64,000 nt of DNA, taken from the IMG/VR virus record IMGVR_UViG_3300042469_000981; one strand, given 5' to 3'. The translations under genes were made by a program, and so were the position numbers. A model generated the notes under the pieces. The model was not told where the DNA came from, made no database searches, and saw only the letters and a list, made by a program, of their open reading frames with translations. This document shows, piece by piece, positions 5,817 to 42,129 of the stretch. Each line of letters starts with the position of its first letter. Position 1 is the first letter of the stretch. This stretch comes from a virus.

Positions 5817-5822
5817 TTAGTT

Positions 5823-6074: not shown

Positions 6075-6076
6075 AA

Positions 6077-8485: not shown

Positions 8486-8489
8486 TTAA

Positions 8490-8771: not shown

Positions 8772-8796
8772 TTTATTATTTTGTTATAAATATTAA

Positions 8797-10281: not shown

Positions 10282-12017
10282 TATTTTGTTGCGTTATAGT
10301 TTTGTAAGACTTCGTCTGCTGTTAATCCTCTGTTATATAAGTTAACACTAGCTATGTTACCATTAAAAAATCCACCAACAGCTCCCCCAACATAAGCTCC
10401 TATTTGAACAGGAACTGTTGTTGATGTTACGGCTGTATTGAAGCTTGAATTAGTTTGTTTTAATACACCATTGATATATACCTTACCATTACCTGCACCA
10501 TCTGATGTGGCAACAACATGATTCCATTGGTTATATTGTATATTTGTAAGTGCAGGATTATTTACGTAAGTCCAATTTGAATTGAACACTCCAAACCAAA
10601 TATATGGAGTTCCTGTATCATTAGCAATGTACAATTCAAAACTTCTTTCATTAGCACCATAAGTTGCTCTAGTACATATAATTTCGTAGGTTCCATTAGG
10701 TACAATATTAGCATAAAACCATGCTTCTATTGAAAAATTAGCATTAGCAAAATCATATGCTGAATTGTATGTAGTATTTATATAATCATCAGTTCCATCA
10801 AATACAATAACACCTCCATCTTTAGGACTAAACGTAGGTCCATTAGTTAAAGTACCATTAACACTTCCTGTTAAATTGTACCATGCGGTTCCTGATTTAG
10901 GATATGATACTAAATTACCAGCATCTAAAGCAAATACTAATCCACTTGTTACTATTGGACCACCGTAGTAGTTTTGAGCTACTTCTGCTGCTGTGAGTGC
11001 TTTAGGATAAACTAAAGCTTGAGCTATATCCCCAGTTAATATTTCACTAGCTGCTGAAGGAGTATAGGAACTTAAAACATGTACTCCGTTAGTTCCTCCA
11101 TTACTTCCAATATTAACTCCCGTTTGAGTTGCTACTCCATTTAAATAAGCAGTTGCTGTTGAACCATTGTAAGTCATTGTTAAATGATAAAAACGTCCTG
11201 TAGCTATAGTGCCTCCGTTGGTGTAAAGTAATCCACCCCCACCTCCATTTCTACCATACATGAAAGCATTATTACTGTAAAATCCAATCTGAGAAAGTAA
11301 TCCTCCTGTACCTAATACTGTTTGGTAAGTACCACCACCACTAGTTCTAGCTACAGCAGTTAATGTAAAAGAAGAAGTAGTATTACTTGGTAAAGTTGTG
11401 TTAACAGCTACAGCATAATCATCTGATCCGTCAAAATTAATCCATCCGTTTGAGTTATAAGTAGGCCCGTTAATTAAATTAAATCTATTATTTTGACCAC
11501 TTATATCATACCAAGTAGATCCTGTTGTAGGGTATGAAATAATTTGATTACCATGAATATATAACCCTAAATTATCAGCATCAATTTGCTCATAATAATC
11601 AGGCCCAACAGCAAAATAATTACTAGAAGAGGCAATCCAATTCAACGCTTGTGAACCAGAGTTAAATGGAGTTTGACCTATTCTATCCGGTAAACCATTT
11701 ACAATTGTTATAACATCTAAAGAAGATGTACCTACTGTTACCCAAAACACAGGAGCTGAATATTCATCTACTGCAGGTAAACCGCCTTCAACATAAGCAC
11801 CTCCCGCGTTTGAGCGAGATACATAGTAGTTAGCTGTATAATTATCTGAAATAATTGTATAGAATTGTCCGTTATTTGGAATATCGGAATACCAATTAGT
11901 ACTGTTGTAGTTTTGCCCGTAATTTTTTCCGGCAGTTTCTACCCCGTAACTAACTCTGGATGTCTGTAAGCTTCCTGAAATTGGGGATAGGTCATTAACA
12001 GCTACTGGGTTTGGCAT
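10281..12017 (-). CDS. Multi-LamG receptor-binding/tail protein, 2 LamG domains
   Basis: 578 aa; two LamG modules, N-terminal domain related to 3447 and 6077. Confidence 0.85.
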   Translation of the reverse strand: MPNPVAVNDLSPISGSLQTSRVSYGVETAGKNYGQNYNSTNWYSDIPNNGQFYTIISDNYTANYYVSRSNAGGAYVEGGLPAVDEYSAPVFWVTVGTSSLDVITIVNGLPDRIGQTPFNSGSQALNWIASSSNYFAVGPDYYEQIDADNLGLYIHGNQIISYPTTGSTWYDISGQNNRFNLINGPTYNSNGWINFDGSDDYAVAVNTTLPSNTTSSFTLTAVARTSGGGTYQTVLGTGGLLSQIGFYSNNAFMYGRNGGGGGLLYTNGGTIATGRFYHLTMTYNGSTATAYLNGVATQTGVNIGSNGGTNGVHVLSSYTPSAASEILTGDIAQALVYPKALTAAEVAQNYYGGPIVTSGLVFALDAGNLVSYPKSGTAWYNLTGSVNGTLTNGPTFSPKDGGVIVFDGTDDYINTTYNSAYDFANANFSIEAWFYANIVPNGTYEIICTRATYGANERSFELYIANDTGTPYIWFGVFNSNWTYVNNPALTNIQYNQWNHVVATSDGAGNGKVYINGVLKQTNSSFNTAVTSTTVPVQIGAYVGGAVGGFFNGNIASVNLYNRGLTADEVLQNYNATK

Positions 12018-12930: not shown

Positions 12931-15507
12931 TTAAGTTAAATAACGTACTATTACTATACCTGAGCCACCATTTCCAGCTGTAGTAGCATTAGCACCACCA
13001 CCACCTCCTCCACCTGTATTTGAAACACCTGAAGTATTAGGGGTTAAAACTCCATTAATTAATCCAACACTATTACCTCCTCCTCCAAGTCCACCAAGAC
13101 CTGAATTAGGAATAGTTCCTGAGAAGTTATGACTACCTCCACCTCCACCTCCACCTGAGTAATAGGTAGAAAATCCAGTAATTGAATATGCTAAACCATC
13201 TCCACCGGCTGTTCCATCTAGAACACCTGAGGTATCTGTAGAGTTTTCACCAGCTTCACCAGCACCACCACCTCCACCTGCAGATCTTGAACTATTAAGA
13301 TCATCTCCTCCTTTATTACCTTGACCAGTAATACCTGCAGCACCTGCTACTCCTGAGTCACCACCAGCTCCACCACCAGATCCTCCTATACTAGGTACAT
13401 TTGGATTTTGATCAGCACCTCCTCTACCACCACCAATAGCAGTTAATCCGCCAAATACAGAATTTGACCCGTTAGTAGCATTGTTTTGATCAATAGTACC
13501 TCCACTACCACCGGCACCAATAGTTACAGTAATACCACTACCTGCGGAAACACCATAAGAAGATACATAAAGTAATCCTCCGGCACCTCCGCCTCCTCCT
13601 CCTCCACCATTAACATTAGATTCAGCTCCTCCACCTCCACCACCTCCAGCAACAACAAGTACTTCTACTTGACCTGTAAATGAAGGAGTAAAGGTTGCTG
13701 AACCTGTAAATGTATGAATAGTAAATGGTCCTGAATATGAAATTGTACCACCTGAACCTGAATTGAAATTAGTCCAAGCTTGAACTTGGGCTTGACTTAT
13801 TGAAGTATCAGGAATAGAAGCTAATGTATTTACAGCAAAATTATTACCAGGGACAGCATAAGTTTGCATATTTGTAAAATAAAGAGCATCAAAATATGTT
13901 CCTGTATATAGTAAAGATCCATTTACATACCAATATGAATTGGTATTGGTAAAATACCAAGCAGATCTATTTTTACCTTGTTTAGGAGTAAAACTCCCAG
14001 CATAAAAATATCCACCACTATTGTTTCCATCCCAATATATTTGTCCTGATCCTCCTAAATTAGCAAAATAAAAATAATCTGATCCTGCAGACGGGTTATT
14101 ATATAAAAATGTGTCGTAACGATTTCCACTTTCAAAATTATAAAAATCAAAATCATATAATATAACTCCAGGTTTAGAAGCAAATGCTTTTGTAGGACCA
14201 GGTGAATTGAAAACAACATCATTAGCAGCTCTAGTTACTGTTGCTGAAGTTGTTGGGATGTATGATGTTGCAAAATTTCCTTCTTCGCTTTGGGCTCCCC
14301 AAATATAAACATAATCCCCAACTGCGTAACCACCGGCAAAATAAGGATTAATAGATCGGTTAGCATCCATTTTAACTCCTATGCGATACCATCCATCTTT
14401 ATAAGGTTCAATTGTACCTGTTCCACTTATTATAGTTCCGTTATATAAATTAAATTCTGTACCAAAAGATGTATTTCCTCTATATAAACTTAATCTACCA
14501 ACATTTCCTGCTTTAGCGAATATAGTTGTATATCCGTCACTTACAGGAGCTGATGTTCCTATTTCTCCACTAGTAGCTGTTAATACTAGTTTAGATGCGT
14601 TCATAGTACCGTCAGGAGAGATAGCAGCACTTCCTGTTACAGTAACACTATATTTACCCCAAACAGCATTAGTAAAATCTTGACTATAAGTGTTTACATT
14701 TGTTCTTTGTGGTTCTTGTAATAATTTACCTTTACCATTTTTATAATCAATTCGAGGATAACCTAAACGGTCTGTTGTTGGTTGGTATGGTTTTACACCA
14801 CCTGTATTAAACATAGCACCCCACACAAATACACTTGTACCTGTGCCAACGTAACCGGCAGATGTAAATGTTGATTGGTTTAATAACATACATAAAAAGT
14901 ATAAGTTACCTCCAATCAATGAAGTTGCATATGTAAAAGTTCCAGTTACATAATACCAACCACCACCTACATTTGTTATTGTAGAAGTTAGAGTATCACC
15001 CCCTGTGTTTACAAAATTTTGAGTAATTGTACCATTTACTAAATCAACAACTACTTGACTTCTGTAGACACTATCATCTGTAAGACCAAAACTAAAATAT
15101 TGGTGATTATTGTATTTTACATAAAGAGAAAAAGACATTGTTTGTGGGCTTCCATACCCTGTAAATGCTCCTTGATATACTCTATGGGCGGCATTATTAC
15201 TATTATTAGCTATAGTATCTGCAGTTGTTGTTCCGTTAGGTGCTATAGTACTGTTTGCTGTTACAGATGTATCATTTAATATCCACGGACTAGATCCAAT
15301 TGCCTCACTTTGATTTATTAAATTAGCCGGTACTGTTTCAATATAACCTTGTTGGTTAACTCGAGTACCACCTCCACTATTTCCACCAACAGCACCATCA
15401 ACAGTACCATCATTAGGTAAAACAGAATATACCTTATCTTCTTGATAAGAAATTATACTACCCGCAGGATTAAAAATAAAAGAGGAATTATTGAGTATAC
15501 TCGCCAT
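12931..15507 (-). CDS. Fibre/spike protein: two carbohydrate-binding-like jelly-roll domains plus C-terminal glycine-rich domain
   Basis: 858 aa; two TN/NL...W...APxGT..A..L...GWY/R modules; TIHTFTGS...VEVLVVAGGGGGG...GGSGIVIVRY C-terminus. Confidence 0.75.
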   Translation of the reverse strand: MASILNNSSFIFNPAGSIISYQEDKVYSVLPNDGTVDGAVGGNSGGGTRVNQQGYIETVPANLINQSEAIGSSPWILNDTSVTANSTIAPNGTTTADTIANNSNNAAHRVYQGAFTGYGSPQTMSFSLYVKYNNHQYFSFGLTDDSVYRSQVVVDLVNGTITQNFVNTGGDTLTSTITNVGGGWYYVTGTFTYATSLIGGNLYFLCMLLNQSTFTSAGYVGTGTSVFVWGAMFNTGGVKPYQPTTDRLGYPRIDYKNGKGKLLQEPQRTNVNTYSQDFTNAVWGKYSVTVTGSAAISPDGTMNASKLVLTATSGEIGTSAPVSDGYTTIFAKAGNVGRLSLYRGNTSFGTEFNLYNGTIISGTGTIEPYKDGWYRIGVKMDANRSINPYFAGGYAVGDYVYIWGAQSEEGNFATSYIPTTSATVTRAANDVVFNSPGPTKAFASKPGVILYDFDFYNFESGNRYDTFLYNNPSAGSDYFYFANLGGSGQIYWDGNNSGGYFYAGSFTPKQGKNRSAWYFTNTNSYWYVNGSLLYTGTYFDALYFTNMQTYAVPGNNFAVNTLASIPDTSISQAQVQAWTNFNSGSGGTISYSGPFTIHTFTGSATFTPSFTGQVEVLVVAGGGGGGGAESNVNGGGGGGGGAGGLLYVSSYGVSAGSGITVTIGAGGSGGTIDQNNATNGSNSVFGGLTAIGGGRGGADQNPNVPSIGGSGGGAGGDSGVAGAAGITGQGNKGGDDLNSSRSAGGGGGAGEAGENSTDTSGVLDGTAGGDGLAYSITGFSTYYSGGGGGGGSHNFSGTIPNSGLGGLGGGGNSVGLINGVLTPNTSGVSNTGGGGGGGANATTAGNGGSGIVIVRYLT

Positions 15508-18993: not shown

Positions 18994-20187
18994 TTAATAA
19001 ATATCCAAAAGTTTATTAACTGACATAATTACTTGATCTGGAGTAATAGTTTTAGTACATTCAAATTGGCGAGGGGTATCTTTATGGTCTGGACACCATT
19101 CCCAGTCGCCTGGATCTAACCATTTGCGGTTAAAACATCCTTTACATGTTTTAGGATCTTCAGGATAAACACGTTCACATTCCTGGAATTCAGTATATGG
19201 ATGGCTAAATCCTGAAATCATAATTGTAGGTGTGTTTAAAGACCAGGATAACCAACTTAATCCACTACCTACACCAATAAACATTTTAGCATCCCTAATA
19301 TCAACCATTCTGTCTTGTAATGGTAAATCTCCAGTTTTATTAATTACACCTGTTAAAGTACCTCCTAGTTTAGAGTCATGCCATTCATCACCTAAAGGCT
19401 CTTGAGTAAGCATTACTACTTTATAACCTTTATCATTTAAATAATCAATAACAGTTTGCCATCCTCCTTTATAATTCCAATACTTAGCATGGGCTGAAGC
19501 ATGAGGAGCAATAACAACATAATCACCTTTAATATCTGTTTTTGTTTTAGGTGAGTTTATAATAGGTTTAACTTCAGAGTATTTTAACCCTAAAATTTCA
19601 CTTGCTGTTTGTTGTAAAGGATATTTTTTAAAGTCAATTGGTATCTTATCAAATATAACTTTTTTATCATCATAAAACCAACCAAGATTATACATTGCAT
19701 AAAGGTTATCTACTTGAGAACCAGGTTTTACAAACTCAATATGTGGGTAATTTCCTTCAAACCATTCATTGTGGAATGTAGAACAAATTACATCACACAT
19801 AAATGTTTTTCTAAATTCTTCAATGTAAGGGAACCATGCTAAAGTATCACCCATAGCCCCAGAATCAATGTGTATATAAACGCGTTTATCTTTTACACAC
19901 CAATCATGATCAAATACTAAATTGTTGTTACTATAAACTTCTATACGCCAATTAACACAATATTTAATGTTGGTACGAGTCCACATATTGTTATTAATTG
20001 TACTTTCATGTAATACACGATTTGTTTTTTTATTAATAAATTTAACTTTATATTCTTGTTCTGATGGTCCTAAAACTTCTAAGAAAGCACCATTAACAAA
20101 ATTAACATTAAAAGTGTTTTGTGGTTTTTTGTTTTTAATATTTAATATTTTAGTATTACTATATTCTTTAACCAATATGTCTTTCAT
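18994..20187 (-). CDS. tibC: Aah/TibC-type (BAHT, autotransporter strand-loop-strand) protein O-heptosyltransferase homologue
   Basis: 397 aa; N-terminal beta domain ending KYCVNWRIEV; GAMGDTLAWFPY; FIGVGSGLSWLSWSLNTPTIMISGFSHPYTEF; CKGC-x13-C-x11-C in WCPDHKDTPRQFECTK, the Fe-binding Cys pattern of this family. Confidence 0.85.
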   Translation of the reverse strand: MKDILVKEYSNTKILNIKNKKPQNTFNVNFVNGAFLEVLGPSEQEYKVKFINKKTNRVLHESTINNNMWTRTNIKYCVNWRIEVYSNNNLVFDHDWCVKDKRVYIHIDSGAMGDTLAWFPYIEEFRKTFMCDVICSTFHNEWFEGNYPHIEFVKPGSQVDNLYAMYNLGWFYDDKKVIFDKIPIDFKKYPLQQTASEILGLKYSEVKPIINSPKTKTDIKGDYVVIAPHASAHAKYWNYKGGWQTVIDYLNDKGYKVVMLTQEPLGDEWHDSKLGGTLTGVINKTGDLPLQDRMVDIRDAKMFIGVGSGLSWLSWSLNTPTIMISGFSHPYTEFQECERVYPEDPKTCKGCFNRKWLDPGDWEWCPDHKDTPRQFECTKTITPDQVIMSVNKLLDIY

Positions 20188-21115
20188 ATAAATTTATTAA
20201 TTCAGCAGAACGATTTAACCAGGACAATTTTTCAGCGGTTTGTAAAGATAATTTCCTGTAGTCATTATATTCATTTATGATTGTATCTAACCCACGTAAC
20301 ATTTCTTGTAAATCACGAGGTGATCTCCATAACCCATGGAATGTAGTTTCTTCTTCAATCCATCCAAGTATAGGTAAACCACAAGCTGCTGCCTCTAATA
20401 TAGTTAAATTAGGATGACCTGCTTCTAATTCTGATGGGTGTAAAAAGATTGTATGTGAGTTATAAAGTTGTCTTAATTGTTCATTAGACGGCTCAGTTAA
20501 AATACTTAACTTAGGATAACCAAATATCCAAGGATTGTCATTAAACCAATTTTCATTATTTTTTGGACCAGCTATTGTGATAGGTAAATTAGAAGCCATA
20601 GCTACTTTAATACCTAATTCAAATCCTTTTCTATCATAAGAACCATATCCACCTAAACCATTATTTGCTAACATTAATAAACTATGATAAACAGGTGTTG
20701 TATCATTTGGTTTAAATGTATCTGTATTTACTCCATGAGAAAAATAATGCACATTAGGCAATTCAAAATAATCAACTAAATAACGAGCAGGTACTAAAGA
20801 AAAAATAGATTTTTCCATAGCCTTTCGATTTTGTTTATAAACATCTGAGTCTTTACCGTAATGGTAAGCATGGTGGTCATGATGCTGGAAGATATAAGGT
20901 ATGCCTTTGTCTGCTAATTCTAGGGCTAAGTTAGCAACATGAACCATTACTAAATCATAATCTCCTTTTTTAATTTCATTAGCCCATTTTATATCTACTT
21001 CATGACCTAATTCTTTTAAATTGCATGTAAATTCCCATACAATTTTTTCTATTGCTCCCCATGTGGGTGGAGGAATTGGTATTCCACATCCTGGATTTAC
21101 TTGGCAGATTTTCAT
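20168..21115 (-). CDS. Glycosyltransferase family 4 (GT-B fold)
   Basis: 315 aa; IPPPTWGAIEKIV, SHGVNTDTF, FLHPSELEAGHPNLTILEAAACGLP (E-x7-E type motif). Confidence 0.88.
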   Translation of the reverse strand: MKICQVNPGCGIPIPPPTWGAIEKIVWEFTCNLKELGHEVDIKWANEIKKGDYDLVMVHVANLALELADKGIPYIFQHHDHHAYHYGKDSDVYKQNRKAMEKSIFSLVPARYLVDYFELPNVHYFSHGVNTDTFKPNDTTPVYHSLLMLANNGLGGYGSYDRKGFELGIKVAMASNLPITIAGPKNNENWFNDNPWIFGYPKLSILTEPSNEQLRQLYNSHTIFLHPSELEAGHPNLTILEAAACGLPILGWIEEETTFHGLWRSPRDLQEMLRGLDTIINEYNDYRKLSLQTAEKLSWLNRSAELINLYERHIG

Positions 21116-21117
21116 TT

Positions 21118-21726
21118 TTAATTATGTACAAATAAACACTTATCTATAAAATATGGAATTAACTCATGTTTCATATTTTCTACTAATATTCCATCAGCTG
21201 CTGCTTCATGTTTATCTATTGAATATTTTTTTATAACTTCACTTTTTGTAGTAAATTGACCAAAATCAATATAACTATGTTGGATTTTAGGAATAAAATG
21301 TCCATAATCTTTTTTATTATGACTATGAATATTACTATATTTTCCTAAAATCATTTCCCAATATACAAAATTTACTTCAGGATTCCTAGTAATTGCTAGA
21401 TTAATTTCTTCAAGCAAAATAGGCATAAAGTAATTATCATCATTAGTATGGATAATCCAATCACCGGTTGCTAATTGGGTACCTACTTCTCTGCTATGAT
21501 GACCCCAATGGCCGTGTCTTATTTCTGTATTTGTATATTTAAATCTAGGATCTTTAAGATAATCTTCTAATTGATTTTTATGATTATTATTAAAACCATC
21601 ATGCACTAAAATAACTTCCCAATTACTATAAGTTTGACAAACAATACTTTGAAGATTACATTTAAGCAAGTGTGTTTGTTCCCAACATGGAATAATAAAA
21701 CTAAATTTTGTTTTTTCTATTTTCAT
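21118..21726 (-). CDS. Glycosyltransferase family 2 (GT-A fold)
   Basis: 202 aa; FSFIIPCW, CQTYSNWEVILVHDG, TGDWIIHTNDDNY. Confidence 0.88.
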   Translation of the reverse strand: MKIEKTKFSFIIPCWEQTHLLKCNLQSIVCQTYSNWEVILVHDGFNNNHKNQLEDYLKDPRFKYTNTEIRHGHWGHHSREVGTQLATGDWIIHTNDDNYFMPILLEEINLAITRNPEVNFVYWEMILGKYSNIHSHNKKDYGHFIPKIQHSYIDFGQFTTKSEVIKKYSIDKHEAAADGILVENMKHELIPYFIDKCLFVHN

Positions 21727-21728
21727 AG

Positions 21729-23720
21729 TTAATATAAAGTTAAGACTCCGTTTTTAGGTAATTGATTTTCAATATAATATTCATCAACTATTATTTTTTT
21801 ATTTTCTATTTGAGTTTGATCATGTATATCATAAGATGAATAAACTATAATGTATGTTTTTTTAGGATCAAACATAACTTGTCTAAACCAAGCTATTTTA
21901 TGTAAAACATTTACTGTTTCTTCAAAAAGCATATTCTCATCTTCGTAAACTGTAATGTTAATATTTCTACTATCAGTTGAATTAGCGATATTTAAAAACA
22001 CGGCAAATTGGTCTGGATGTTCTTTAATAGGTAGTACTGAAAAATATTCTACTCGGGAGTAATCTTTATGGGTAAAATTATCTTTTACTAATTTAGTAAA
22101 TTCAGATTCTTCTTCCCAATATATTTTATCAGCATCTTGATTAAAAGTATGGTATGTTAAATTTTCTAATCCGTTAGATTCACTACCCCATTTTACCATT
22201 AATGAATCATATTCTTTAGATGTTTTAATAGGTAAAAAATGATCTAAATAAAATTGAGGTTTAGTAGCTAAAAAATAAGTAATAACTGTATTGCCTTCTA
22301 GTTCTTTTCTTAAACCAACATATGCTTGTTTATTATTTAATATTAAAGATACATTGTCGATATAAGAAGCATTTTCTAAAATATAATCATAATTTAAAAA
22401 GAATATTTTTTTAATACCTAAACTATTAGCTAATGAAGCTGCATTGTAATAATTAGTATACACAGATGGTCCATGATAAACATCATTGTTTTCTCCAGAT
22501 AACATCAAATCTACTCTCCAACTACTATAATCAAACCAAGTATAACTATAGAATGTATGTTTAGTTAAAAGATTATTATTATCATAGATACAATAATCAA
22601 CTATTTCTTGCAGTTCTTTAGGAATTGGTAAGTGTGATGTTAATATAATTTTTCTACCTGTTTTCTTTAAAGACTCAATACATTCTTTAGTTGTTTCAAC
22701 TATAGAGTTTAAAATTGGGTAGGTTGAAACTACTATTGCTTCTTCTTCAGTTTTAGGTAAATTAGAATAATATAAAGTAGATTCAATTAAACTTAAATTA
22801 TAACTAAAATCAGTAAAGTCTAAGTAATTTACATTATAATCATCCCAATAATTAAGATATACAGGTAGGTTATATATTAAAACAGGTATTTGATATGAAA
22901 CTGCTTCTCTAATTACTAGAGGCATTGTTTCTTTATCATTGTTTGTGCCCCTGGATGTAAATAGGAATAGATCCATTGCTTGATAAAAAGCATCTACATC
23001 TGTTCTTTCATTCCACCAAGTTAAATTATTGGGTTTGTTTTTCATTAACGGTTCCCAATAATGTCTAAAGTTGTCGGCTTGATTACCTACACAATGGAAC
23101 TCATATTGAGGTAACGCTTTAGCATATTCAAAAAACTCAGCTTGGTTTTTACGGGGAGTAAATAATCCAATATGAAGAATATGTTTTTTATTAGGATCTA
23201 ATCCTAATTTTTGTAGTGCCCCTGTTCTATCCGGTCTTTCAATATATTCAATAGGATATTCAACTAATACTTTAGGAATGTCTATATCTTTATATTGATT
23301 AATCTGCCATTGTGATACAAACATAAACTTATCCGGGAAAAATTTCTTCTGAGTTGTGTCATAAGATGAGTCATGAGATGTTTCTACAATTTTATACTTT
23401 CTGTCTTGAGTATAAATTTGCTCAGCTATCTTACTATCCATAAAAAACTCAGGTATTTCCTCTAAATGAATAATATCGGGTTGGATATTATTAATAATAT
23501 TGATTAATTGCTGTTTATTATCGTCTAATGTGTAGAACTTTTCAGGGGCAACTAACTGCGTTATCTTATTGCGAGTCACTACTAATATACCACCAGTACA
23601 ATCAACCCATTCAACTAAATAAATATCATAACTATTTTTTAATAGTTCAATTTTTTTAGCTAAATATTGAGGTAATCCTCCTGTCGATAAATGAGGCGCT
23701 ACATATAGTAGTTTCTCCAT
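21729..23720 (-). CDS. GT4 glycosyltransferase fused to a second, probably GT-A-like, domain
   Basis: 663 aa; PHLSTGGLPQY, GLFTPRKNQ, FYQAMDLFLFTS...ETMPLVIREA; second half has AIVVSTYP...ILTSH...FFLNYDY. Confidence 0.8.
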   Translation of the reverse strand: MEKLLYVAPHLSTGGLPQYLAKKIELLKNSYDIYLVEWVDCTGGILVVTRNKITQLVAPEKFYTLDDNKQQLINIINNIQPDIIHLEEIPEFFMDSKIAEQIYTQDRKYKIVETSHDSSYDTTQKKFFPDKFMFVSQWQINQYKDIDIPKVLVEYPIEYIERPDRTGALQKLGLDPNKKHILHIGLFTPRKNQAEFFEYAKALPQYEFHCVGNQADNFRHYWEPLMKNKPNNLTWWNERTDVDAFYQAMDLFLFTSRGTNNDKETMPLVIREAVSYQIPVLIYNLPVYLNYWDDYNVNYLDFTDFSYNLSLIESTLYYSNLPKTEEEAIVVSTYPILNSIVETTKECIESLKKTGRKIILTSHLPIPKELQEIVDYCIYDNNNLLTKHTFYSYTWFDYSSWRVDLMLSGENNDVYHGPSVYTNYYNAASLANSLGIKKIFFLNYDYILENASYIDNVSLILNNKQAYVGLRKELEGNTVITYFLATKPQFYLDHFLPIKTSKEYDSLMVKWGSESNGLENLTYHTFNQDADKIYWEEESEFTKLVKDNFTHKDYSRVEYFSVLPIKEHPDQFAVFLNIANSTDSRNINITVYEDENMLFEETVNVLHKIAWFRQVMFDPKKTYIIVYSSYDIHDQTQIENKKIIVDEYYIENQLPKNGVLTLY

Positions 23721-23738: not shown

Positions 23739-24017
23739 TTAGAATGAAGCTACTTTGGTATTTTCAACTTCAGTAGGGATAAATTCACCACTTTCAATGT
23801 TGATAGTACCAGCACCATACTTGTCAGAAAGAGTTTTACCCATTTCAGATTCTTCTTCTTTTAAATCATTAAAGAATTTAACAAGTTCAGTTTCTCTAGC
23901 TTCAAGTTGCAATTTAGCAATTCTAAGATTACCAAATTCATTTACAAGAGCAGTGTTTTTTTGTTGGATTTCTTTAAGAGCGTCAATCTCTTTTTTAGTT
24001 AATTTTTTTGTAGCCAT
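23739..24017 (-). CDS. Small coiled-coil protein, paralogue of 2371..2622
   Basis: 92 aa; see 2371..2622. Confidence 0.6.
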   Translation of the reverse strand: MATKKLTKKEIDALKEIQQKNTALVNEFGNLRIAKLQLEARETELVKFFNDLKEEESEMGKTLSDKYGAGTINIESGEFIPTEVENTKVASF

Positions 24018-24083: not shown

Positions 24084-27000
24084 TTAGAAAACACCAGTAA
24101 TTATTCCTCCTACAACATTTATGTTTTGAGTTCCTGGAGGGTTCATTGGGATGTTTATAACTCCAGTATATCCAGGAGCTGCTCCTATAGAATATCCAGT
24201 TGAAGCATTAATTTGACCAGAAACATCTAGAGGATATCCGGGAGATGCTGTACCAATTCCTAATCTACTATTTGTAACATCAGCATATAGGAAAGATACA
24301 CTTTGTATTTGAGTTGTACTTGTAGTTCTAACTAGATAATCAGGTTGATTAGTAAACGTACCACCACTAATACCAGAAGTACCATTAAATGATAAACCTG
24401 AAGTACCAGCTGAACCGCTTGTACCTGAAGTACCGCTTACTGCAGATAAACCAGCAGCCCCTGCTATACCTGAAGTACCAGAGCTACCGGATGTGCCTGA
24501 TGTGCCTGAAGTTTGAGACGCTCCTGAAGCTCCTGCCGCTCCAGAAGTACCATTTGATCCATTCGTACCTGAAGTTCCTGAAGTGTTAGAAGATCCTGAG
24601 GCTCCTGCTGTTCCGTTTGAACCTGCTGAACCTGAAGTGCCAGAAGTATTTGATAAACCACTTGCTCCTGCTAGTCCTGAAGTACCACTTGAGCCTGAAG
24701 AACCACTTGAGCCTGAAGTACCAGAAGTGTTTGAGGATCCAGAAGGACCGGCTGTACCATTTGATCCTGTTGAACCACTAGAACCAGCAGTACCTGATGT
24801 GTTTGAAGATCCTGAAGGGCCAGCGGTTCCATTAGAACCTGTTGAACCTGAAGAACCACTAGTTCCTGATGTACTTGATACACCTGAACCACCATCTACT
24901 CCTGATGTACCTGTACTTCCAGACGAACCACTTGAGCCAGATGTTCCTGAAGTATTAGATGAACCTGAAGGGCCTGCGGTTCCATTTGAACCTGTAGATC
25001 CGCTTGAACCTGAAGTGCCAGAAGTGTTAGATGAACCTGATGGACCTGCTGTACCATTTGATCCTGTTGATCCAGAAGAACCAGATGTTCCTGATGAACT
25101 TGAAGAACCAGAAGCGCCTGCTGTACCGTTAGATCCTGATGAACCTGAAGTACCAGAAGTGGCACTTACTGCTGAAAGACCAGCAGCACCTGCTATACCA
25201 GAAGTACCTGAAGAACCGGATGTACCACTTGTTCCTGAGGTTGTTGAACTTCCAGAGGCACCTGCTGTTCCATTAGAACCAGTTGAGCCAGAAGTTCCAG
25301 AAGTATTAGAAGAGCCTGAAGCTCCAGCCGTTCCATTAGAACCAGTAGAACCACTAGTACCTGATGTGTTAGATAAACCTGAGTTCCCTGCTGTACCACT
25401 TGAGCCTGTAGAACCACTAGTTCCAGAAGTGCCGGAAGTATTGGAGGATCCAGATGGACCTGCTGTACCATTAGAACCGGTTGATCCTGAAGTACCGCTT
25501 GTACCTGAAGTAGATGATGCTCCTGAATTACCTGCTGCACCTGATGATCCATTTGAACCAGCTGAACCTGAAGTTCCAGATGTATTAGATATACCACTAG
25601 CTCCTGCTAATCCGGATGTTCCGCTTGAACCAGATGATCCACTAGAACCTGAAGTGCCAGAAGTGTTAGATGAACCTGATGGACCTGCTGTACCATTTGA
25701 TCCTGTTGATCCAGAAGAACCAGATGTTCCTGATGTATTAGAAGATCCAGAAGGACCTGCAGTTCCATTAGAACCTGTTGATCCACTTGAACCTGAAGTA
25801 CCGGAAGTAAAGGATGTACCTGAAGGGCCTGCTGTTCCATTTGAACCTGTTGACCCTGATGATCCACTAGTACCAGAAGTACTTGAAACGCCTGAACCTC
25901 CATCAACACCAGAAGTACCTGTTGAACCAGAAGATCCAGAAGAACCAGATGAGCCGCTTGTTTGTGATGCTCCACTAGCTCCTGCACTACCATTTGATCC
26001 TGTAGAACCAGAAGTACCAGAAGTGCCTGAAGAATTTGATTGCCCTGAATTACCTGCTGTACCTGAACTCCCTGTTGAACCAGATGATCCGCTTGAACCT
26101 GAAGTAAAAGATTCTCCAGATGCTCCTGCGTTTCCTGAAGTACCATTTGATCCTGAAGAACCGCTTGATCCTGAAGTACCAGAAGTGCCTGAAGAAGAAG
26201 ATGATCCAGAAGCACCAGCAGTACCATTAGAACCTGAACTTCCTGAGGTACCAGAAGTAGCACTTACTGCTGAAAGACCAGCAGCGCCTGCTATACCTGA
26301 AGTACCAGATGAACCGCTTGTTCCTGAAGTACCTGAAGTATTGCTACTACCTGATACTCCTGCACTACCATTTGATCCTGTTGATCCTGAAGTTCCTGAG
26401 GTACCTGAAGTGTTGCCTGTGCCTGAAGCACCTGCTGAACCATTTGATCCAGCTGAACCAGATGTACCTGAAGTTCCACTAGTACCTGAAGAACCACTAT
26501 TTTGTGATAAACCTGAAGTACCTGTTGATCCAGAAGAACCAGAAGTACCTGAGGTTGAACTTTGTCCTGAATTACCTGCCACTCCAGAAGAACCATTTGA
26601 TCCACTTGAACCTGATGTTCCAGAACTAGCTGATTGTCCTGATGATCCATCAACACCTGATGAACCACTTGAACCTGATGAACCACTTGATCCAGAAGTA
26701 CTAGACACTCCTGAAGAACCATTTGATCCTGATGATCCAGATGAACCACTAGATCCACTTGTACCAGAAGTAGAAGAACTTCCTGAGGCACCGGCTGAAC
26801 CATTTGATCCAGCTGAACCACTAGTACCTGATGTATTTGATATACCACTAGCTCCTGCTAATCCTGATGTACCAGAAGAGCCAGAGCTACCTGACGATCC
26901 AGAAGATCCGCTTGAACCAGATGTCCCAGATGTGTTACTTTGTCCTGAAGAACCATTTGACCCTGATGAACCACTTGTTCCTGATGTACCACTAGAACTA

Positions 27001-29039
27001 CTTTCTCCTGAAGAACCATTTGACCCTGATGAACCAGAAGTACCACTAGTACCAGAAGTTCCAGCACTTCCACTTGCCTGAGAAAGACCTGAGGTACCTG
27101 TTGATCCAGAACTACCTGAAGTTCCAGAAGTTGAAGATTGTCCACTATTACCCGCTGCTCCAGAAGAACCATTTGATCCACTAGATCCAGATGTACCTGA
27201 AGTACCGCTTGTACCAGAAGAATTAGATTGTCCACTACTACCTGCTAATCCAGAAGAACCGTTTGATCCAGAGGAACCACTAGTGCCTGAAGTTGAAGAT
27301 TGACCTGATGATCCATCTAACCCGCTTGAACCAGATGAACCGCTTGAGCCAGAAGATCCGCTTGTTCCACTAGTACCTGATGATTGAGATAGACCAGAAG
27401 TACCAGTTGATCCACTTGAACCTGAAGTACCAGAAGTACTTGATTGACCACTATTGCCTGCTACTCCAGATGAACCATTTGATCCAGAACTACCTGAAGT
27501 ACCTGAAGTTGAGGATTGACCTGATGAACCATCTGCTCCTGTTGAACCTGAAGATCCAGAAGAGCCACTGGTTCCTGAAGTTGAAGATTGTCCTGATGAG
27601 CCATTAATACCTGAAGAACCATTTGATCCACTAGATCCAGATGAGCCGCTTGAACCTGATGTTCCACTTGTTGAAGATATTCCTGAGCCTCCATCAACAC
27701 CAGAAGTACCTGAGCTGCCTGAGCTGCCTGAACTACCGCTTGTACCTGATGTACCGCTTGTTTGAGATAAACCATCAGTTCCGGCTGAACCATTTGAACC
27801 TGAAGAACCACTAGTTCCACTAGTACCAGAAGATTGTGATAGACCAGAAGTACCTGTACTACCGCTTGATCCAGAAGTACCTGATGTGCTTGATTGGCCG
27901 CTATTTCCAGCTACACCTGAAGATCCATTTGAACCTGAACTGCCTGAGGTACCAGAGGTAGATGATTGTCCTGATGAGCCATCTAATCCACTTGAACCTG
28001 AAGATCCAGATGAACCACTGGTTCCACTTGAACCTGATATTCCTGATGATCCATCTACTCCGCTTGAACCAGATGAGCCATTTGAGCCTGAAGAACCACT
28101 AGTTCCACTAGTGCCTGATGATTGAGATAAACCTGAAGTGCCTGTTGATCCACTTGATCCAGAAGTACCAGAAGTAGAAGATTGACCTGAGTTACCTGCT
28201 AAACCTGAGGAACCGCTTGAACCTGAACTACCTGATGAACCTGACGTTCCAGAAGAACCATCTTGTCCACTAGAACCAGATGAACCACTTGAGCCAGAAG
28301 ATCCTGAACTACCTGATGATCCACTTGTACCACTACTGCCATCATTACCACTTGAACCAGCAGAACCACTAGATCCAGAAGATCCACTTGTACCACTGAT
28401 TCCTGAAGATTGTGATAGACCAGAAGTACCAGTTGATCCACTTGAACCTGAAGTTCCTGAAGTAGATGATTGTCCACTATTACCTCCTGCTCCTGAAGAA
28501 CCATTTGATCCTGATGAACCAGAAGTTCCACTAGTACCTGAACTTCCTGAAGAACCACTTGAGCCGGATGTACCACTAGTTCCTCCACTTGTTCCTGAAG
28601 AACCTTCTACACCACTAGTTCCTGATGAACCTGTTGAGCCTGATGATCCACTTGTGCCTGCTGTTCCACTTGTACCTGAAGAGCCAGATATTCCTGAGGT
28701 ACCAGATGAACCTCCTGAAGTACCTGAACTTCCGCTTACACCAGAAGTACCATTTGACCCTGATAAACCACTTGAACCTGCTAATCCAGAAGAACCATTT
28801 GATCCAGATGTACCTGAAGTACCTGAGGTGCCTGATGTGCCTGCTGTTCCACTTCCGCCTCCGCCTCCTTGAACTAAAGATACAACACCATCATCGTTTA
28901 TAGTTAAAACGTAACCTTCCCAACCTTCAGTTACAATAGGTAAATTAAATTTATTAAAAGCTAATGACCTATCAAAAAAACCTCTACCTTGGTTTGGGTT
29001 GTCTAAACGATTATTACCTCTGTATCTGTTTTCGGCCAT
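24084..29039 (-). CDS. Giant Gly-Xaa-Yaa (GSS/GTS/GSN) repeat fibre protein
   Basis: 1651 aa; about 1500 aa of triplet repeats; C-terminal RLGIGTASPGYPLDVSG fibre module; own ATATTTATAC motif at 29052..29061. Confidence 0.8.
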   Translation of the reverse strand: MAENRYRGNNRLDNPNQGRGFFDRSLAFNKFNLPIVTEGWEGYVLTINDDGVVSLVQGGGGGSGTAGTSGTSGTSGTSGSNGSSGLAGSSGLSGSNGTSGVSGSSGTSGGSSGTSGISGSSGTSGTAGTSGSSGSTGSSGTSGVEGSSGTSGGTSGTSGSSGSSGSSGTSGTSGSSGSNGSSGAGGNSGQSSTSGTSGSSGSTGTSGLSQSSGISGTSGSSGSSGSAGSSGNDGSSGTSGSSGSSGSSGSSGSSGSSGQDGSSGTSGSSGSSGSSGSSGLAGNSGQSSTSGTSGSSGSTGTSGLSQSSGTSGTSGSSGSNGSSGSSGVDGSSGISGSSGTSGSSGSSGSSGLDGSSGQSSTSGTSGSSGSNGSSGVAGNSGQSSTSGTSGSSGSTGTSGLSQSSGTSGTSGSSGSNGSAGTDGLSQTSGTSGTSGSSGSSGSSGTSGVDGGSGISSTSGTSGSSGSSGSSGSNGSSGINGSSGQSSTSGTSGSSGSSGSTGADGSSGQSSTSGTSGSSGSNGSSGVAGNSGQSSTSGTSGSSGSTGTSGLSQSSGTSGTSGSSGSSGSSGSSGLDGSSGQSSTSGTSGSSGSNGSSGLAGSSGQSNSSGTSGTSGTSGSSGSNGSSGAAGNSGQSSTSGTSGSSGSTGTSGLSQASGSAGTSGTSGTSGSSGSNGSSGESSSSGTSGTSGSSGSNGSSGQSNTSGTSGSSGSSGSSGSSGSSGTSGLAGASGISNTSGTSGSAGSNGSAGASGSSSTSGTSGSSGSSGSSGSNGSSGVSSTSGSSGSSGSSGSSGVDGSSGQSASSGTSGSSGSNGSSGVAGNSGQSSTSGTSGSSGSTGTSGLSQNSGSSGTSGTSGTSGSAGSNGSAGASGTGNTSGTSGTSGSTGSNGSAGVSGSSNTSGTSGTSGSSGTSGIAGAAGLSAVSATSGTSGSSGSNGTAGASGSSSSSGTSGTSGSSGSSGSNGTSGNAGASGESFTSGSSGSSGSTGSSGTAGNSGQSNSSGTSGTSGSTGSNGSAGASGASQTSGSSGSSGSSGSTGTSGVDGGSGVSSTSGTSGSSGSTGSNGTAGPSGTSFTSGTSGSSGSTGSNGTAGPSGSSNTSGTSGSSGSTGSNGTAGPSGSSNTSGTSGSSGSSGSSGTSGLAGASGISNTSGTSGSAGSNGSSGAAGNSGASSTSGTSGTSGSTGSNGTAGPSGSSNTSGTSGTSGSTGSSGTAGNSGLSNTSGTSGSTGSNGTAGASGSSNTSGTSGSTGSNGTAGASGSSTTSGTSGTSGSSGTSGIAGAAGLSAVSATSGTSGSSGSNGTAGASGSSSSSGTSGSSGSTGSNGTAGPSGSSNTSGTSGSSGSTGSNGTAGPSGSSNTSGTSGSSGSSGSTGTSGVDGGSGVSSTSGTSGSSGSTGSNGTAGPSGSSNTSGTAGSSGSTGSNGTAGPSGSSNTSGTSGSSGSSGSSGTSGLAGASGLSNTSGTSGSAGSNGTAGASGSSNTSGTSGTNGSNGTSGAAGASGASQTSGTSGTSGSSGTSGIAGAAGLSAVSGTSGTSGSAGTSGLSFNGTSGISGGTFTNQPDYLVRTTSTTQIQSVSFLYADVTNSRLGIGTASPGYPLDVSGQINASTGYSIGAAPGYTGVINIPMNPPGTQNINVVGGIITGVF
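24360..28860 (-). repeat. 9-bp/tripeptide low-complexity repeat with higher-order units (e.g. 24-aa GSTGSNGTAGPSGSSNTSGTSGSS)
   Basis: Direct reading of translation and DNA (cctgaagtac/cctgatgaac-type units). Confidence 0.95.
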
Positions 29040-39237: not shown

Positions 39238-42129
39238 TTAAAATATTTTAAGTAGTGCTTTTAATTGCCATCCTGAAGTTGGTGTCTCTAATACAATCAC
39301 AGTATTGCTACCACTATAGTTTGCTGTGAAGTATACATTGTTAGTGTTTCCAATATCGACTGTACTAACATCATAATGGACTGGCGTAATTGAACCGTCC
39401 CACGCAACATAGAAATCTCCTGTACGTACATTAGAGTTAGATCTTACCATATATTCCATATGGGCTGTATAAGCATATCCAAAAGGAATTGTTACAATTA
39501 AATTACTACCTGAACCTATTAAATCATTTTCTACTACATCAAACGTTACTGTGTTAAGTACAAAGTTTGATGAGTACATACCATTTACTAAACTTGAAGT
39601 GATCATAAAATCACTACCAGTTAATTGTAATAATGTGTTGTCGTATGTAAATCCTACACTAGTTACTACTCCATTTGCTGTTCCGTCTGAAACTAAAACA
39701 GCGTATTGTGATGGGTTAGATACAGATAAACTAGTACCTGAAGATCCAGCTGTGCCTGAAGAGCCTGAAGTACCAGCGGTACCCGCTGCTCCTGAACTGC
39801 CTGAGCTACCTGAGGTGCCTGATAAACCAGAGGTACCACTTGTACCTGAGGATCCTGATTCGCCTGAACTACCTGAACTACCTGAACTACCTGCAACTCC
39901 AGAAGTACCACTTGAACCACTAGCTCCGGCTGCGCCTGATGTACCTGAAGTACCTGAACTACCTGAAGATCCAGAACTACCACTAGTTCCTGATGAACCA
40001 GAAGAACCACTTGAACCAGATGAACCAGCTGTACCACTTTCTCCTGAAGTACCTGATGAGCCTGAAGTTCCTGATTGTCCTGAGGAGCCAGCACTGCCTG
40101 AGGTACCTGAGGTACCTGAAGAGCCAGCACTGCCTGATGAACCGCTTAAACCACTTGATCCACTTTCGCCTGAAGTTCCAGATGAGCCTGAAGTTCCAGA
40201 TTCACCAGAACTACCACTTGAACCTGAACTACCGCTTAAACCAGATGAACCTGAGCTACCGCTTAAACCACTAGATCCTGCTGTCCCACTTAAACCAGAA
40301 GAACCACTTGTACCACTTTCGCCTGAAGTACCACTTGAACCGCTTGTACCACTTTCACCTGATGTTCCACTTGAACCTGAAGTACCTGATTGTCCTGAAG
40401 TACCGCTTGAACCTGAAGTACCTGATTCGCCTGATGACCCTGAAGTGCCTGATGAACCAGCAACACCTGAAGTGCCTGAGCTACCAGAAGATCCTGAGCT
40501 ACCGGCTGTACCTGAACTACCGTCTCCACCAGATGCTCCATCTAGGTTTGTAGTCCAAGAAGAATATGTTGCTGTACCCTCAACACTAGATATTTTTATT
40601 GTTAATGATCCTGTGCCTGAATTGTATGAAACTACATCCCCGTGAATTTCTTCACCAACAGCATGAGCTACAATTACGTGTTGAGATACTGTATATGATA
40701 ATCCTGTACTTGTAGTTATGGTTAAATTATTTCCAACTACAAGTGTACTTAAATTAATTGAATCAGTTGATGTACCAATATAGGAAGCACTTTGACCTGA
40801 TGAGCCTGAAGTTCCATTAGCCCCTGAAGTACCGCTTGAGCCTGTCGCACCTGAAGAACCACTAGATCCTGAAGTGCCTGCTTCTCCTGAGGTTCCACTT
40901 GAACCACTTGTTCCTGATAAACCTGAGCTACCTGAAGTGCCAGATTCACCTGAGGTGCCTGAACTGCCTGATGTACCACTTAAACCTGAGCTTCCACTAG
41001 TTCCTGAAGAACCAGAAGAACCACTAGTACCTGTTGTACCAGAAGTACCAGATAAACCTGAACTGCCTGAACTACCACTTGTTCCTGAAGTACCACTTGC
41101 ACCAGAAGTACCTGATGAGCCTGAAGTTCCTGATTGTCCAGAAGATCCAGAAGAACCATCAGCGCCTGAGCTGCCTGAAGTACCATCAACTCCTGAGCTG
41201 CCGCTTGAACCACCAGATCCTGAAGTACCAGATAAGCCTGAAGTACCTGAAGAACCAGAAGTACCTGATTGTCCTGAAGAACCAGAAGAACCATCTATAC
41301 CTGAACTACCAGAACTACCATTTTGTCCTGATGTGCCTGAGCTTCCTGTTAATCCTGAAGAACCTGAAGTGCCTGAAGTGCCTGTTGTACCTGAAGAACC
41401 AGAACTGCCTGAAGTACCAGCGCTACCTGAAGTACCTGCTGACCCTGAAGTACCATTTGAACCAGAAGTACCAGATGAACCATCTATACCGCTTGATCCA
41501 GATGAACCTGAAGTACCATCTATACCTGAAGTACCTGAAGTTCCACTTGAACCAGAAGAACCTGAAGAACCTGAAGTACCACTTGTACCAGAAGATCCAG
41601 ATGTACCAGGAGCACCTGGTAAACCAGATACGCCTGAAGAACCTGAAGTACCATCAGTACCTGATGTACCACTTGTACCTGCTGTACCTGGAGAGCCAGT
41701 ACCTGAAGTACCGGCTGTACCAGCAGTACCTGAAGTACCGGTTGTACCAGAACTACCTGATGAACCTGCTGAACCTGAGCTACCAGATGAACCTGAAGTA
41801 CCAGTTGTACCTGAGGTACCTGAAGCTCCAGATGTACCAGATGAACCTCTAGGTCCTACTTGTCCAACTTCAATTACAGCGGATATAGGTTGAGCTACTT
41901 CTACAACATTATCAGGAAGTTGAGTATTTACTACCGTAACAGTGTTAGGTAGATTATCTAAATTTAATGTTAAAGTTGTTTGTACTACTGTTGTAGGACT
42001 AAAAACAGTACTTTGAGTTGTTACTGAACTGGAGTCAGGGTTTTGAACAACTGTAATAGTATTACCTGTCGGTTCTACAACGACTATAGTATTTTGGCTT
42101 TGTATTACATTAATTGAGTTTGACTCCAT
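39238..42129 (-). CDS. Second Gly-X-Y (GSS/GTS) repeat fibre protein with internal globular domain
   Basis: 963 aa; two repeat blocks (about 41855-40790 and 40545-39735) separated by YIGTSTDSI...SSWTTNLDG; C-terminal domain shared with 32460..39215. Confidence 0.8.
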   Translation of the reverse strand: MESNSINVIQSQNTIVVVEPTGNTITVVQNPDSSSVTTQSTVFSPTTVVQTTLTLNLDNLPNTVTVVNTQLPDNVVEVAQPISAVIEVGQVGPRGSSGTSGASGTSGTTGTSGSSGSSGSAGSSGSSGTTGTSGTAGTAGTSGTGSPGTAGTSGTSGTDGTSGSSGVSGLPGAPGTSGSSGTSGTSGSSGSSGSSGTSGTSGIDGTSGSSGSSGIDGSSGTSGSNGTSGSAGTSGSAGTSGSSGSSGTTGTSGTSGSSGLTGSSGTSGQNGSSGSSGIDGSSGSSGQSGTSGSSGTSGLSGTSGSGGSSGSSGVDGTSGSSGADGSSGSSGQSGTSGSSGTSGASGTSGTSGSSGSSGLSGTSGTTGTSGSSGSSGTSGSSGLSGTSGSSGTSGESGTSGSSGLSGTSGSSGTSGEAGTSGSSGSSGATGSSGTSGANGTSGSSGQSASYIGTSTDSINLSTLVVGNNLTITTSTGLSYTVSQHVIVAHAVGEEIHGDVVSYNSGTGSLTIKISSVEGTATYSSWTTNLDGASGGDGSSGTAGSSGSSGSSGTSGVAGSSGTSGSSGESGTSGSSGTSGQSGTSGSSGTSGESGTSGSSGTSGESGTSGSSGLSGTAGSSGLSGSSGSSGLSGSSGSSGSSGESGTSGSSGTSGESGSSGLSGSSGSAGSSGTSGTSGSAGSSGQSGTSGSSGTSGESGTAGSSGSSGSSGSSGTSGSSGSSGSSGTSGTSGAAGASGSSGTSGVAGSSGSSGSSGESGSSGTSGTSGLSGTSGSSGSSGAAGTAGTSGSSGTAGSSGTSLSVSNPSQYAVLVSDGTANGVVTSVGFTYDNTLLQLTGSDFMITSSLVNGMYSSNFVLNTVTFDVVENDLIGSGSNLIVTIPFGYAYTAHMEYMVRSNSNVRTGDFYVAWDGSITPVHYDVSTVDIGNTNNVYFTANYSGSNTVIVLETPTSGWQLKALLKIF

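Follow-up and report, generated by a model that had tools for sequence, protein, structure and literature searches.

A serine- and threonine-rich, proline- and charge-poor collagen-like fibre gene beside a TibC-type glycosyltransferase module in a Flavobacteriales-type myophage

Collagen is generally considered to be stabilised by salt bridges or proline, and KGE/KGD (Lys-Gly-Glu/Asp) salt bridges have been described as a general collagen folding code in all domains of life and in viruses (PMC11923368). Collagen-like regions of bacteria contain on average 19% Pro in the X and 32% Thr in the Y position of their Gly-X-Y triplets (PMC8968730). Here we analyse a stretch of 64,000 nt (the window), which is part of a single IMG/VR virus record (IMGVR_UViG_3300042469_000981; 135,792 bp, estimated to be 83% complete) and encodes P0001, a collagen-like fibre protein of 1651 amino acids (aa). 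The shaft of P0001 does not show the X/Y composition of known collagen stabilisers (Pro/hydroxyproline or Lys-Gly-Glu/Asp pairs). It represents a conserved and abundant fibre family, with a predicted length of ∼400 nm, that lacks both accepted stabilisers (PMC11923368) and is tied genetically to a protein O-heptosyltransferase.

The general plan of P0001 resembles that of BclA from the exosporium of Bacillus anthracis, with an N-terminal anchor, a collagen-like region of variable length and a C-terminal domain. BclA consists mostly of GPT triplets with about one third Pro, forms short uninterrupted helices, carries rhamnose and anthrose and involves no enzyme of the BAHT family of protein O-heptosyltransferases. 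Unlike BclA, the P0001 shaft has ∼1% Pro, 75% Ser in Y, 55 periodic triplets without Gly and an expected length of ∼400 nm. The Thr-rich triplets of BclA are O-glycosylated by enzymes encoded nearby (glycosylation cited in PMC11923368), while for P0001 glycosylation is predicted. In Riftia cuticle collagen and galactosyl-Thr peptides a sugar on a hydroxy amino acid replaces hydroxyproline as stabiliser (cited in PMC11923368), as is proposed here; however, the Riftia protein is a Pro-containing animal collagen with Thr in Y, whereas the phage protein P0001 has Ser in Y, Thr in X and almost no Pro. Trimeric collagen-like stalks between non-collagen ends, without hydroxyproline, are also known from the EPclA fibres of E. 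coli O157:H7 prophages and from Streptococcus Scl1/Scl2 (PMC3368898; PMC11923368). These are stabilised by Pro in X and ∼22–30% charged residues, in contrast to the P0001 shaft with no Lys or Arg and 1% Asp+Glu.

The gene arrangement resembles the pairs TibC-TibA and Aah-AIDA-I, where an enzyme of the same family is encoded beside a long, repetitive, Ser-rich, rod-forming protein. The acceptors of TibC and Aah are 19-residue beta-helix repeats of secreted autotransporters, while the presumed acceptor here is a collagen-like phage fibre assembled in the cytoplasm. The serine-rich repeat glycoproteins GspB and Fap1 differ in having Ser-X dipeptides, GtfA/GtfB and accessory Sec, whereas the P0001 repeat is a Gly-periodic tripeptide; NCBIfam and PDB sequence searches gave no specific GtfA-type match for the adjacent GT1 and GT4 proteins. 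Freeman and colleagues reportedly described in 2023 that virus-encoded transferases glycosylate mycobacteriophage virions on the C-terminal tails of capsid or tail-tube proteins. Viral transferases also modify the virus's own structural proteins in the glycosylated collagen and fibrils of Mimivirus (PMC9546862, PMC9614988). The Mimivirus acceptor, however, is hydroxylysine of a Pro/Lys-containing collagen, and the enzymes of both Mimivirus and mycobacteriophages are different ones (no BAHT). We found no published link of BAHT enzymes to phages or to collagen.

Architecture of the fibre

P0001 corresponds to an open reading frame (ORF) that is open over its full length and comprises the following parts:

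24084..29039 (-), fibre gene P0001, Ser/Thr-rich, Pro- and charge-poor, collagen-like, 1651 aa
28869..29039 (-), N-terminal non-repeat domain of 57 aa, presumed virion anchor, 82–100% identical in 22 IMG/VR loci
28584..28868 (-), two short collagen-like segments (aa 58–109 and 110–152), each closed by a one-residue register shift GTSG/G
24390..28583 (-), main shaft (aa 153–1550), 466 triplets in one register, 55 of them Gly-less
24084..24389 (-), C-terminal non-collagen module with one fibre-repeat copy (LGIGTasPgypLDVsG) and a tip ending in GGIITGVF

Ser (618 residues, 37.4%), Gly (474, 28.7%) and Thr (207, 12.5%) make up most of the protein, followed by Ala (5.3%) and Asn (5.0%), while there are only 17 Pro (1.0%), 24 Asp+Glu and 8 Lys+Arg. 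The Pfam Collagen model (PF01391; gathering cut-off 27.2 bits) matches with 492.3 bits (E 2e-151) in 12 stretches, and the whole collagen-like part amounts to ∼495 triplets. A preliminary description of this DNA had named GSS, GTS, GSN, GST and GTA as dominant triplets, and these are indeed the commonest by count (126, 95, 32, 23 and 16). It had also seen almost no charge and Pro only in a few GPS. In agreement with this, the repeat region (aa 58–1550) contains no Lys, no Arg, 11 Asp, 3 Glu, 8 Pro and no KGE/KGD triplet, and all 8 Pro of the shaft are in the X position of GPS (8/466 triplets), with none in Y. Thr is found mostly in X (154 residues), Ser occupies Y in 350 of the 466 triplets (75%), and together they account for 750 of the 1398 residues of the main shaft. 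The collagen triple helix rises by 0.29 nm per residue; at this assumed rise the main shaft would be ∼400 nm long if it is a triple helix.

The Gly-X-Y repeat noted in the preliminary description is collagen-like but not uniform. Gly is present at 411 of 466 in-phase positions and only 5 Gly are out of phase, while 55 triplets (12%) carry Ser (19), Asn (18), Gln (9), Ala (6), Phe (2) or Thr (1) instead. Each of these interruptions is exactly one triplet long, and the register runs on across all of them without a break over 466 triplets. Since all 55 breaks are whole-triplet substitutions, they are compatible with a continuing helix rather than with loops. The Gly-less triplets (nodes) are also periodic, with a modal spacing of 8 triplets (72 nt): 25 of 54 gaps are exactly 8 triplets (2.7 ± 1.6 expected) and 37 are 7–9 triplets (8.0 expected), counts that were never reached in 20,000 permutations. 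Perfect Gly-X-Y runs therefore typically comprise 7 triplets, the longest 25, and in a triple helix the nodes would follow each other at ∼6.9 nm. They have a constant context, G-x-A, G-x-S, G-(Q/S/L)-S, X-T-S, G-T-S and G-S-S. When the chains are in register all 55 nodes coincide, whereas a slip of any size leaves no more than 27 coinciding, so that the slightly irregular spacing could fix the register of three chains.

This lattice and its X-T/V-S and G-T-S context recur in other lineages whose collagen-like gene is linked to the enzyme module described below, while the residue replacing Gly varies (Arg, Gln, Asn, Ala or Ser) and some lineages have two nodes per unit with a spacing of 2+6. 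Ten or more Gly-less triplets are present in 25 of 30 different collagen ORFs linked to the module, and in 17 of the 30 most spacings are 7–9. We compared them with 77 Ser/Thr-rich collagen-like proteins drawn by shared words from 5.8 billion proteins, of which a single one has the lattice (1/77). In the data at hand the lattice seems to follow the enzyme module more closely than composition does, although this comparison is indicative only, as the sets are not phylogenetically independent. Because of this tendency the nodes might be the sites where an enzyme engages the rod, which is offered as an idea only; TibC is reported to draw a loop from its rod-shaped substrate (PMC4358343). The conserved 8-triplet lattice with its flanking motif is new for this fibre family.

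The two register slips of P0001 (aa 109/110 and 152/153) lie close to the N-terminal domain and may act as hinges by the attachment point; their positions are kept in loci L002, L042 and L044.

Comparison with related loci supports the earlier view of P0001 as a very long fibre protein. The 22 loci sharing the N-terminal domain were found by a DNA-pattern scan, while a word-based homologue search with the N-terminal 60 aa gave no match. Further matches are two distant relatives (52%) and one weak match without tblastn confirmation. Except for two loci cut off inside the N-terminal domain, all 22 run on into Pro-free Ser/Thr triplets. The complete genes with this N-terminus encode 1481 to 3175 aa and differ in their C-termini: many relatives end in Peptidase_S74 (E 1e-15 to 1e-17), others have an EPDxW...YAxPxY end or a weakly cement-protein-like end. 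N-terminally anchored phage fibres are usually built in this way, with the N-terminus conserved and the C-termini exchanged, and S74 chaperones assist folding of trimeric fibres and spikes. Since the N-terminus is conserved, the C-termini are swapped and many relatives end in Peptidase_S74, P0001 is a modular fibre and probably a trimeric one. The S74 ends of the orthologues provide the best evidence in this analysis for a trimeric shaft, and modular ends with S74 as trimer indicator are likewise new for this fibre family.

The C-terminal module of P0001 itself has no Pfam match, and tblastn of this domain against 50,697 deposited phage genomes gave no match. Its fibre repeat is very widespread (5385 phmmer hits), and its extreme C-terminus is common to P0080, P0102 and P0075, whose shafts are non-collagen; non-collagen shafts with this ending occur in proteins of 1823 and 1965 aa. 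An AlphaFold2 monomer model of aa 1330–1651 showed no fold (predicted local distance difference test, pLDDT, 32), which is uninformative for an obligate oligomer.

Two fibres with the same N-terminal anchor, L086 (IMGVR_UViG_3300017917_003541; 3175 aa) and L090 (3078 aa), combine two shaft types in one chain. Upstream of the same enzyme module they have a collagen-like part, then GGGxxNTASG repeats, with a weak, below-cut-off match to a grass antifreeze beta-roll model, and a Peptidase_S74 end. The fibre C-termini of L069, L024, L077 and L081 show a weak, below-cut-off likeness to phage cement/minor capsid proteins (E 0.0015–0.0034), which hints that some module-linked fibres may be head fibres.

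The downstream glycosylation module

The fibre gene is followed on the same strand by a set of genes that we refer to as the module:

23739..24017 (-), 92-aa module partner P0154, one long helix and a beta hairpin
21729..23720 (-), 663-aa glycosyltransferase (GT1), Glycos_transf_1 domain at aa 169–295, conserved module member
21118..21726 (-), 202-aa GT2, private to this genome among the fetched loci
20168..21115 (-), 315-aa GT4-type glycosyltransferase, conserved module member
18994..20187 (-), 397-aa TibC/Aah-type protein O-heptosyltransferase (BAHT), matching 4rap_A and TIGR04414
15542..18990 (-), accessory genes for a 248-aa protein, an FkbM methyltransferase, a Methyltransf_24 protein and a 387-aa GT2, private to this genome

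The 397-aa enzyme aligns with TibC (PDB 4rap_A) over aa 22–393 against 21–386 (E 9e-57). It scores 319.8 bits with the NCBIfam equivalog TIGR04414 (cut-off 200 bits) and <40 bits with lipopolysaccharide heptosyltransferase models. In TibC, D110 is the catalytic base, K230, R286 and W305 bind the donor and P300 sets the heptose stereoselectivity (PMC4358343). According to the 4rap alignment, D110, K230, R286, W305 and the four iron-finger Cys are kept, while T226 is changed to Ser and P300 to Gly. These sequence features place the 397-aa enzyme firmly among the protein O-heptosyltransferases. No autotransporter is encoded in the window; the neighbour of this enzyme is the collagen-like fibre. 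The GT1 and GT4 proteins yielded no useful match in PDB sequence searches.

P0154 is present in most related loci, sometimes as two paralogues, one after the fibre gene and one after the TibC-like gene. It falls into virus-only clusters of up to 2,500 members and has an invariant KYG...GE motif (alignment A1). The AlphaFold2 model (pLDDT 87.7) consists of a 60-residue helix and the hairpin, and Foldseek of this model against the PDB found no fold match. P0154 could be a fibre assembly factor or an enzyme partner.

The preliminary description had tied the fibre to an adjacent glycosylation cluster, and the comparison of loci supports this tie between the genes. A TibC-like relative is encoded by 322 IMG/VR contigs, of which 80 loci (63–90% identity) were fetched. 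Of the non-redundant viral loci whose upstream sequence covers at least 8 kb (n=18), 16 have a same-strand Ser/Thr collagen-like ORF upstream of the TibC-like gene. These ORFs have 0–1% Pro and 0–4% charged residues and end 3.0–6.3 kb before the enzyme gene. The other two loci (L040 and L043) were considered as exceptions and rejected: they encode a 3175-aa chimera with the same N-terminus, in which the collagen-like part, lying beyond the locus edge, is followed by GGGxxNTASG repeats and a Peptidase_S74 end. Once this chimera is counted, the linkage is effectively 18/18. The same arrangement is found in two contigs of Flavobacteriales metagenome-assembled genomes (MAGs). The conserved core comprises the fibre, the 92-aa protein, GT1, GT4 and the TibC-like enzyme. 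Within the fetched set, only this genome has the GT2s, the methyltransferases and the 248-aa gene. L107 and L108 were considered as Pro-/charge-rich controls and discarded, as their Pro and charges are in a globular C-terminal domain and not in the repeat.

Due to this gene linkage, glycosylation of the fibre is the most economical reading, and the fibre is probably O-glycosylated by the adjacent module. Alternatively, the glycosyltransferase cluster could act on host lipopolysaccharide, other virion proteins or DNA, leaving the fibre unmodified and its adjacency a matter of a shared variable region. In marine myophages, glycosyltransferases encoded in hypervariable tail-fibre regions have been interpreted as modifying the host O-antigen (PMC7029224), and donor-sugar genes were not found in the 83%-complete record. 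However, the key enzyme is from a family of which only protein O-heptosyltransferases are known, and fibre and module keep their order and strand even where enzyme identity falls to 63% and where the shaft type changes. We thus regard a different target as quite improbable.

More distant TibC homologues occur in other settings. In the cultured Microcystis phage Mel-JY01 (L111; PP395634.1, 3065–8430) a TibC-like domain (43% identity) forms the C-terminal part of a 1226-aa multi-domain protein, annotated 'methyltransferase FkbM', which directly follows a 508-aa 'structural protein' with 18% Ser; this phage is a possible experimental entry point. One 735-kb phage record has a fused TibC homologue and, ∼5 kb away, a 699-aa protein containing a 120-residue Gly-X-Y stretch.

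Stabilisation of the shaft

The preliminary description had asked how such a protein can fold. With a shaft that has neither Pro nor salt bridges to rely on, and 55 substitutions of Gly in addition, the question is well posed. A triple helix with periodic loosened nodes is the favoured structure, on account of the strict Gly periodicity, the whole-triplet interruptions and the trimeric context. The anatomy and conservation of the sequence, the linkage of the genes and the family of the enzyme are established by the analysis. What we infer is a long modular virion fibre that would be a trimer with a nodal collagen-like triple helix, O-glycosylated and, most inferential of all, dependent for its folding on the sugars of the adjacent module. 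Taken as a whole, this is on balance the likeliest reading, held with somewhat better than even confidence.

According to this proposal, the conserved 57-aa N-terminus would anchor the fibre to the particle, and the swappable C-terminal module would form the far end and probably start trimer formation. The shaft between them would be built from units of ∼8 triplets, about seven Gly-X-Y and then one in-register Gly-less triplet (G-x-S / X-T-S / G-T-S). Starting at the C-terminus, three chains would wind into a triple helix with local loosening at the nodes every ∼6.9 nm. The downstream module would O-glycosylate the fibre in the cytoplasm: the TibC-type heptosyltransferase may put the first sugar on Ser/Thr, GT1, GT4 and GT2 may lengthen the glycan and the methyltransferases may cap it. 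The sugar coat would then give the stability, solubility and stiffness that otherwise come from proline and salt bridges. In a stricter form, the Pro- and charge-free triple helix would be stable only after TibC-type O-heptosylation, and the nodes would loop out Ser/Thr to the ring-shaped enzyme and lock the register; this form we consider rather unlikely.

Several observations weigh against the proposal. A triple helix could accommodate residues such as Arg, Gln or Asn only with difficulty where each of its three chains should have Gly. P300, the residue for heptose stereoselectivity in TibC, is Gly in the 397-aa enzyme. No gene for ADP-heptose synthesis, neither gmhA nor a PfkB-type heptose-activation gene, was found in the 83%-complete record; one Flavobacteriales MAG with a related locus has an rfaE domain II above cut-off. 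Another huge-phage record with a TibC homologue at 38% identity has nothing collagen-like within 12 kb of it. Moreover, the genome encodes two collagen-like proteins in all, and the second shares the composition of P0001 yet does not adjoin the module:

39238..42129 (-), second collagen-like gene P0002, 963 aa, same Ser/Thr composition, 207 triplets

None of the 207 triplets of P0002 is Gly-less. Finally, three contig fragments with uninterrupted Ser/Thr collagen-like fibres (one found by the N-terminal piece search and two distant relatives; 27–36 kb, 12–19% complete) carry no GT1, GT2 or TibC-like gene. Ser/Thr collagen composition thus appears not to travel always with glycosyltransferases, as far as three fragments of 12–19% completeness can tell. 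That this composition alone is widespread, and not always found with transferases, is a further point new for this fibre family. Since P0002 is off-module and the three fragments are without transferases, sugars may not be needed for folding.

P0002 consists of three collagen segments with an 85-residue non-collagen insert (∼aa 446–530) and a globular C-terminal domain. C-termini related to it are found in L046, L053 and P0158.

The same observations lead to a rival in which an ordinary, marginal triple helix folds without sugars, and the module decorates it for shielding against proteases or immunity, adhesion or solubility. A C-terminal trimer nucleus, the great length, hydration of Ser/Thr hydroxyls and a cool aquatic habitat would then suffice. 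Pro-free Ser/Thr collagen domains are indeed common in metagenomic phage proteins, the medians for X/Y in the 77 proteins being 76% Ser+Thr, 0% Pro and 4.5% charged residues, and both the off-module P0002 and the three fragments fit this picture, although these transferase-less controls are only 12–19% complete. Data on host-guest peptides place Ser and Thr with the less favourable residues for X/Y, which counts against an unsugared helix, and the replacement of 12% of the Gly positions should lower its stability further. In favour of this rival, known BAHT enzymes modify a substrate that is already rod-shaped (PMC4358343). On the other hand, (Gly-Pro-Thr)10 folds only with galactosylated Thr and is otherwise a random coil (PMC11923368). 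We consider folding without sugars a serious but doubtful possibility.

Two further structures abandon the triple helix. An unfolded, extended bottle-brush with dense O-glycosylation, comparable to mucins or to Gram-positive serine-rich repeat adhesins, would agree with 750 Ser/Thr in 1398 residues, with the lack of structure in AlphaFold2 and with the adjoining soluble GT4-type and other transferases. It would, however, leave unexplained why Gly stands at every third position over 1400 residues (411 against 5 out of phase), why interruptions are exactly one triplet long and why the 8-triplet lattice is conserved, and is therefore improbable. A non-collagen periodic fold could be a polyglycine-II bundle, as in snow-flea antifreeze protein and phage S16 gp38, or a 24-residue solenoid, possibly binding ice or surfaces. 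The 24-residue super-repeat would suit such a fold and the Gly-less triplets could be its turns, but across 55 units there is no register shift or turn-like length variation, and the shaft has almost no hydrophobic core residues. Furthermore, the orthologues bear trimer-specific S74 chaperones, the shaft swaps with known trimeric fibre repeats and, as a weak argument, the AlphaFold2 monomer shows no compact fold. The polyglycine-II or ice-binding alternative of the preliminary description hence finds no support in the single register over 466 triplets, the S74 orthologues or the model, and a fold of this kind is highly improbable.

Should the fibre form a triple helix, it would represent a third way to stabilise collagen, by sugars or hydroxyl hydration alone, and would provide a simple recombinant test system, as ADP-heptose is made by E. 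coli. Glycosylation of virions, demonstrated to date for mycobacteriophages, would reach aquatic Bacteroidota phages, and the BAHT enzyme family would extend past autotransporters. If the fibre were unglycosylated or a disordered stalk, it would be a curiosity of composition.

Genomic setting of the fibre gene

The fibre ORF is a genuine gene of a 136-kb Flavobacteriales-type myophage. The nearest relatives of its PhoH are from Flavobacterium phage vB_FspM_immuto (57.6%) and Microcystis phage Mel-JY01. Every gene of the window is on the minus strand. The order starts with terminase, portal, protease and major capsid protein, followed by PhoH and the second collagen-like protein (963 aa), a 2251-aa tail fibre, a head-completion-like gene, two small genes, P0001 and the 92-aa protein. 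Then come GT1 (663 aa), GT2 (202 aa), GT4 (315 aa), GT9/TibC-like (397 aa), the 248-aa protein, two methyltransferases and GT2 (387 aa), and finally an 858-aa Gly_rich_2 tail protein, four paralogous structural proteins and the tail sheath. P0001 is thus located in the structural module, with neck-like genes on one side and the tail sheath on the other.

The annotated frame of the fibre gene is its coding frame, and the repeat is kept at the protein rather than the DNA level. Its Gly, Ser and Thr codons are used as in the sheath, capsid, portal, terminase and large fibre genes, with all six Ser codons represented. The 24-aa repeat units are 74% identical as protein but 65% as DNA, with 3016 synonymous versus 1882 non-synonymous codon differences among them. 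Since Tandem Repeats Finder shows only a diverged 72-nt periodicity (66–77% matches), the repeat is neither a recent duplication nor an assembly artefact. Megablast of the fibre region found nothing beyond short repeat matches in two huge-phage records. An 832-aa plus-strand ORF at 24583–27081 was rejected as a gene, being a shadow of the fibre repeat.

Three further observations concern the surrounding genes. A homing-endonuclease-like gene (43333–43869, minus strand; phrog_314, E 3e-13) is found beside phoH, between head and fibre genes. Directly after the glycosyltransferase cluster, the 858-aa protein (12931–15507, minus strand) has a C-terminal Pfam Gly_rich_2 domain (E 2.5e-22) and matches to tail-protein PHROGs. 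Between the fibre region and the sheath, four consecutive genes at 3447–12017 (minus strand; 789, 802, 494 and 578 aa) share the PHROG families 24074, 8510 and 17347 and are paralogues encoding virion structural proteins.

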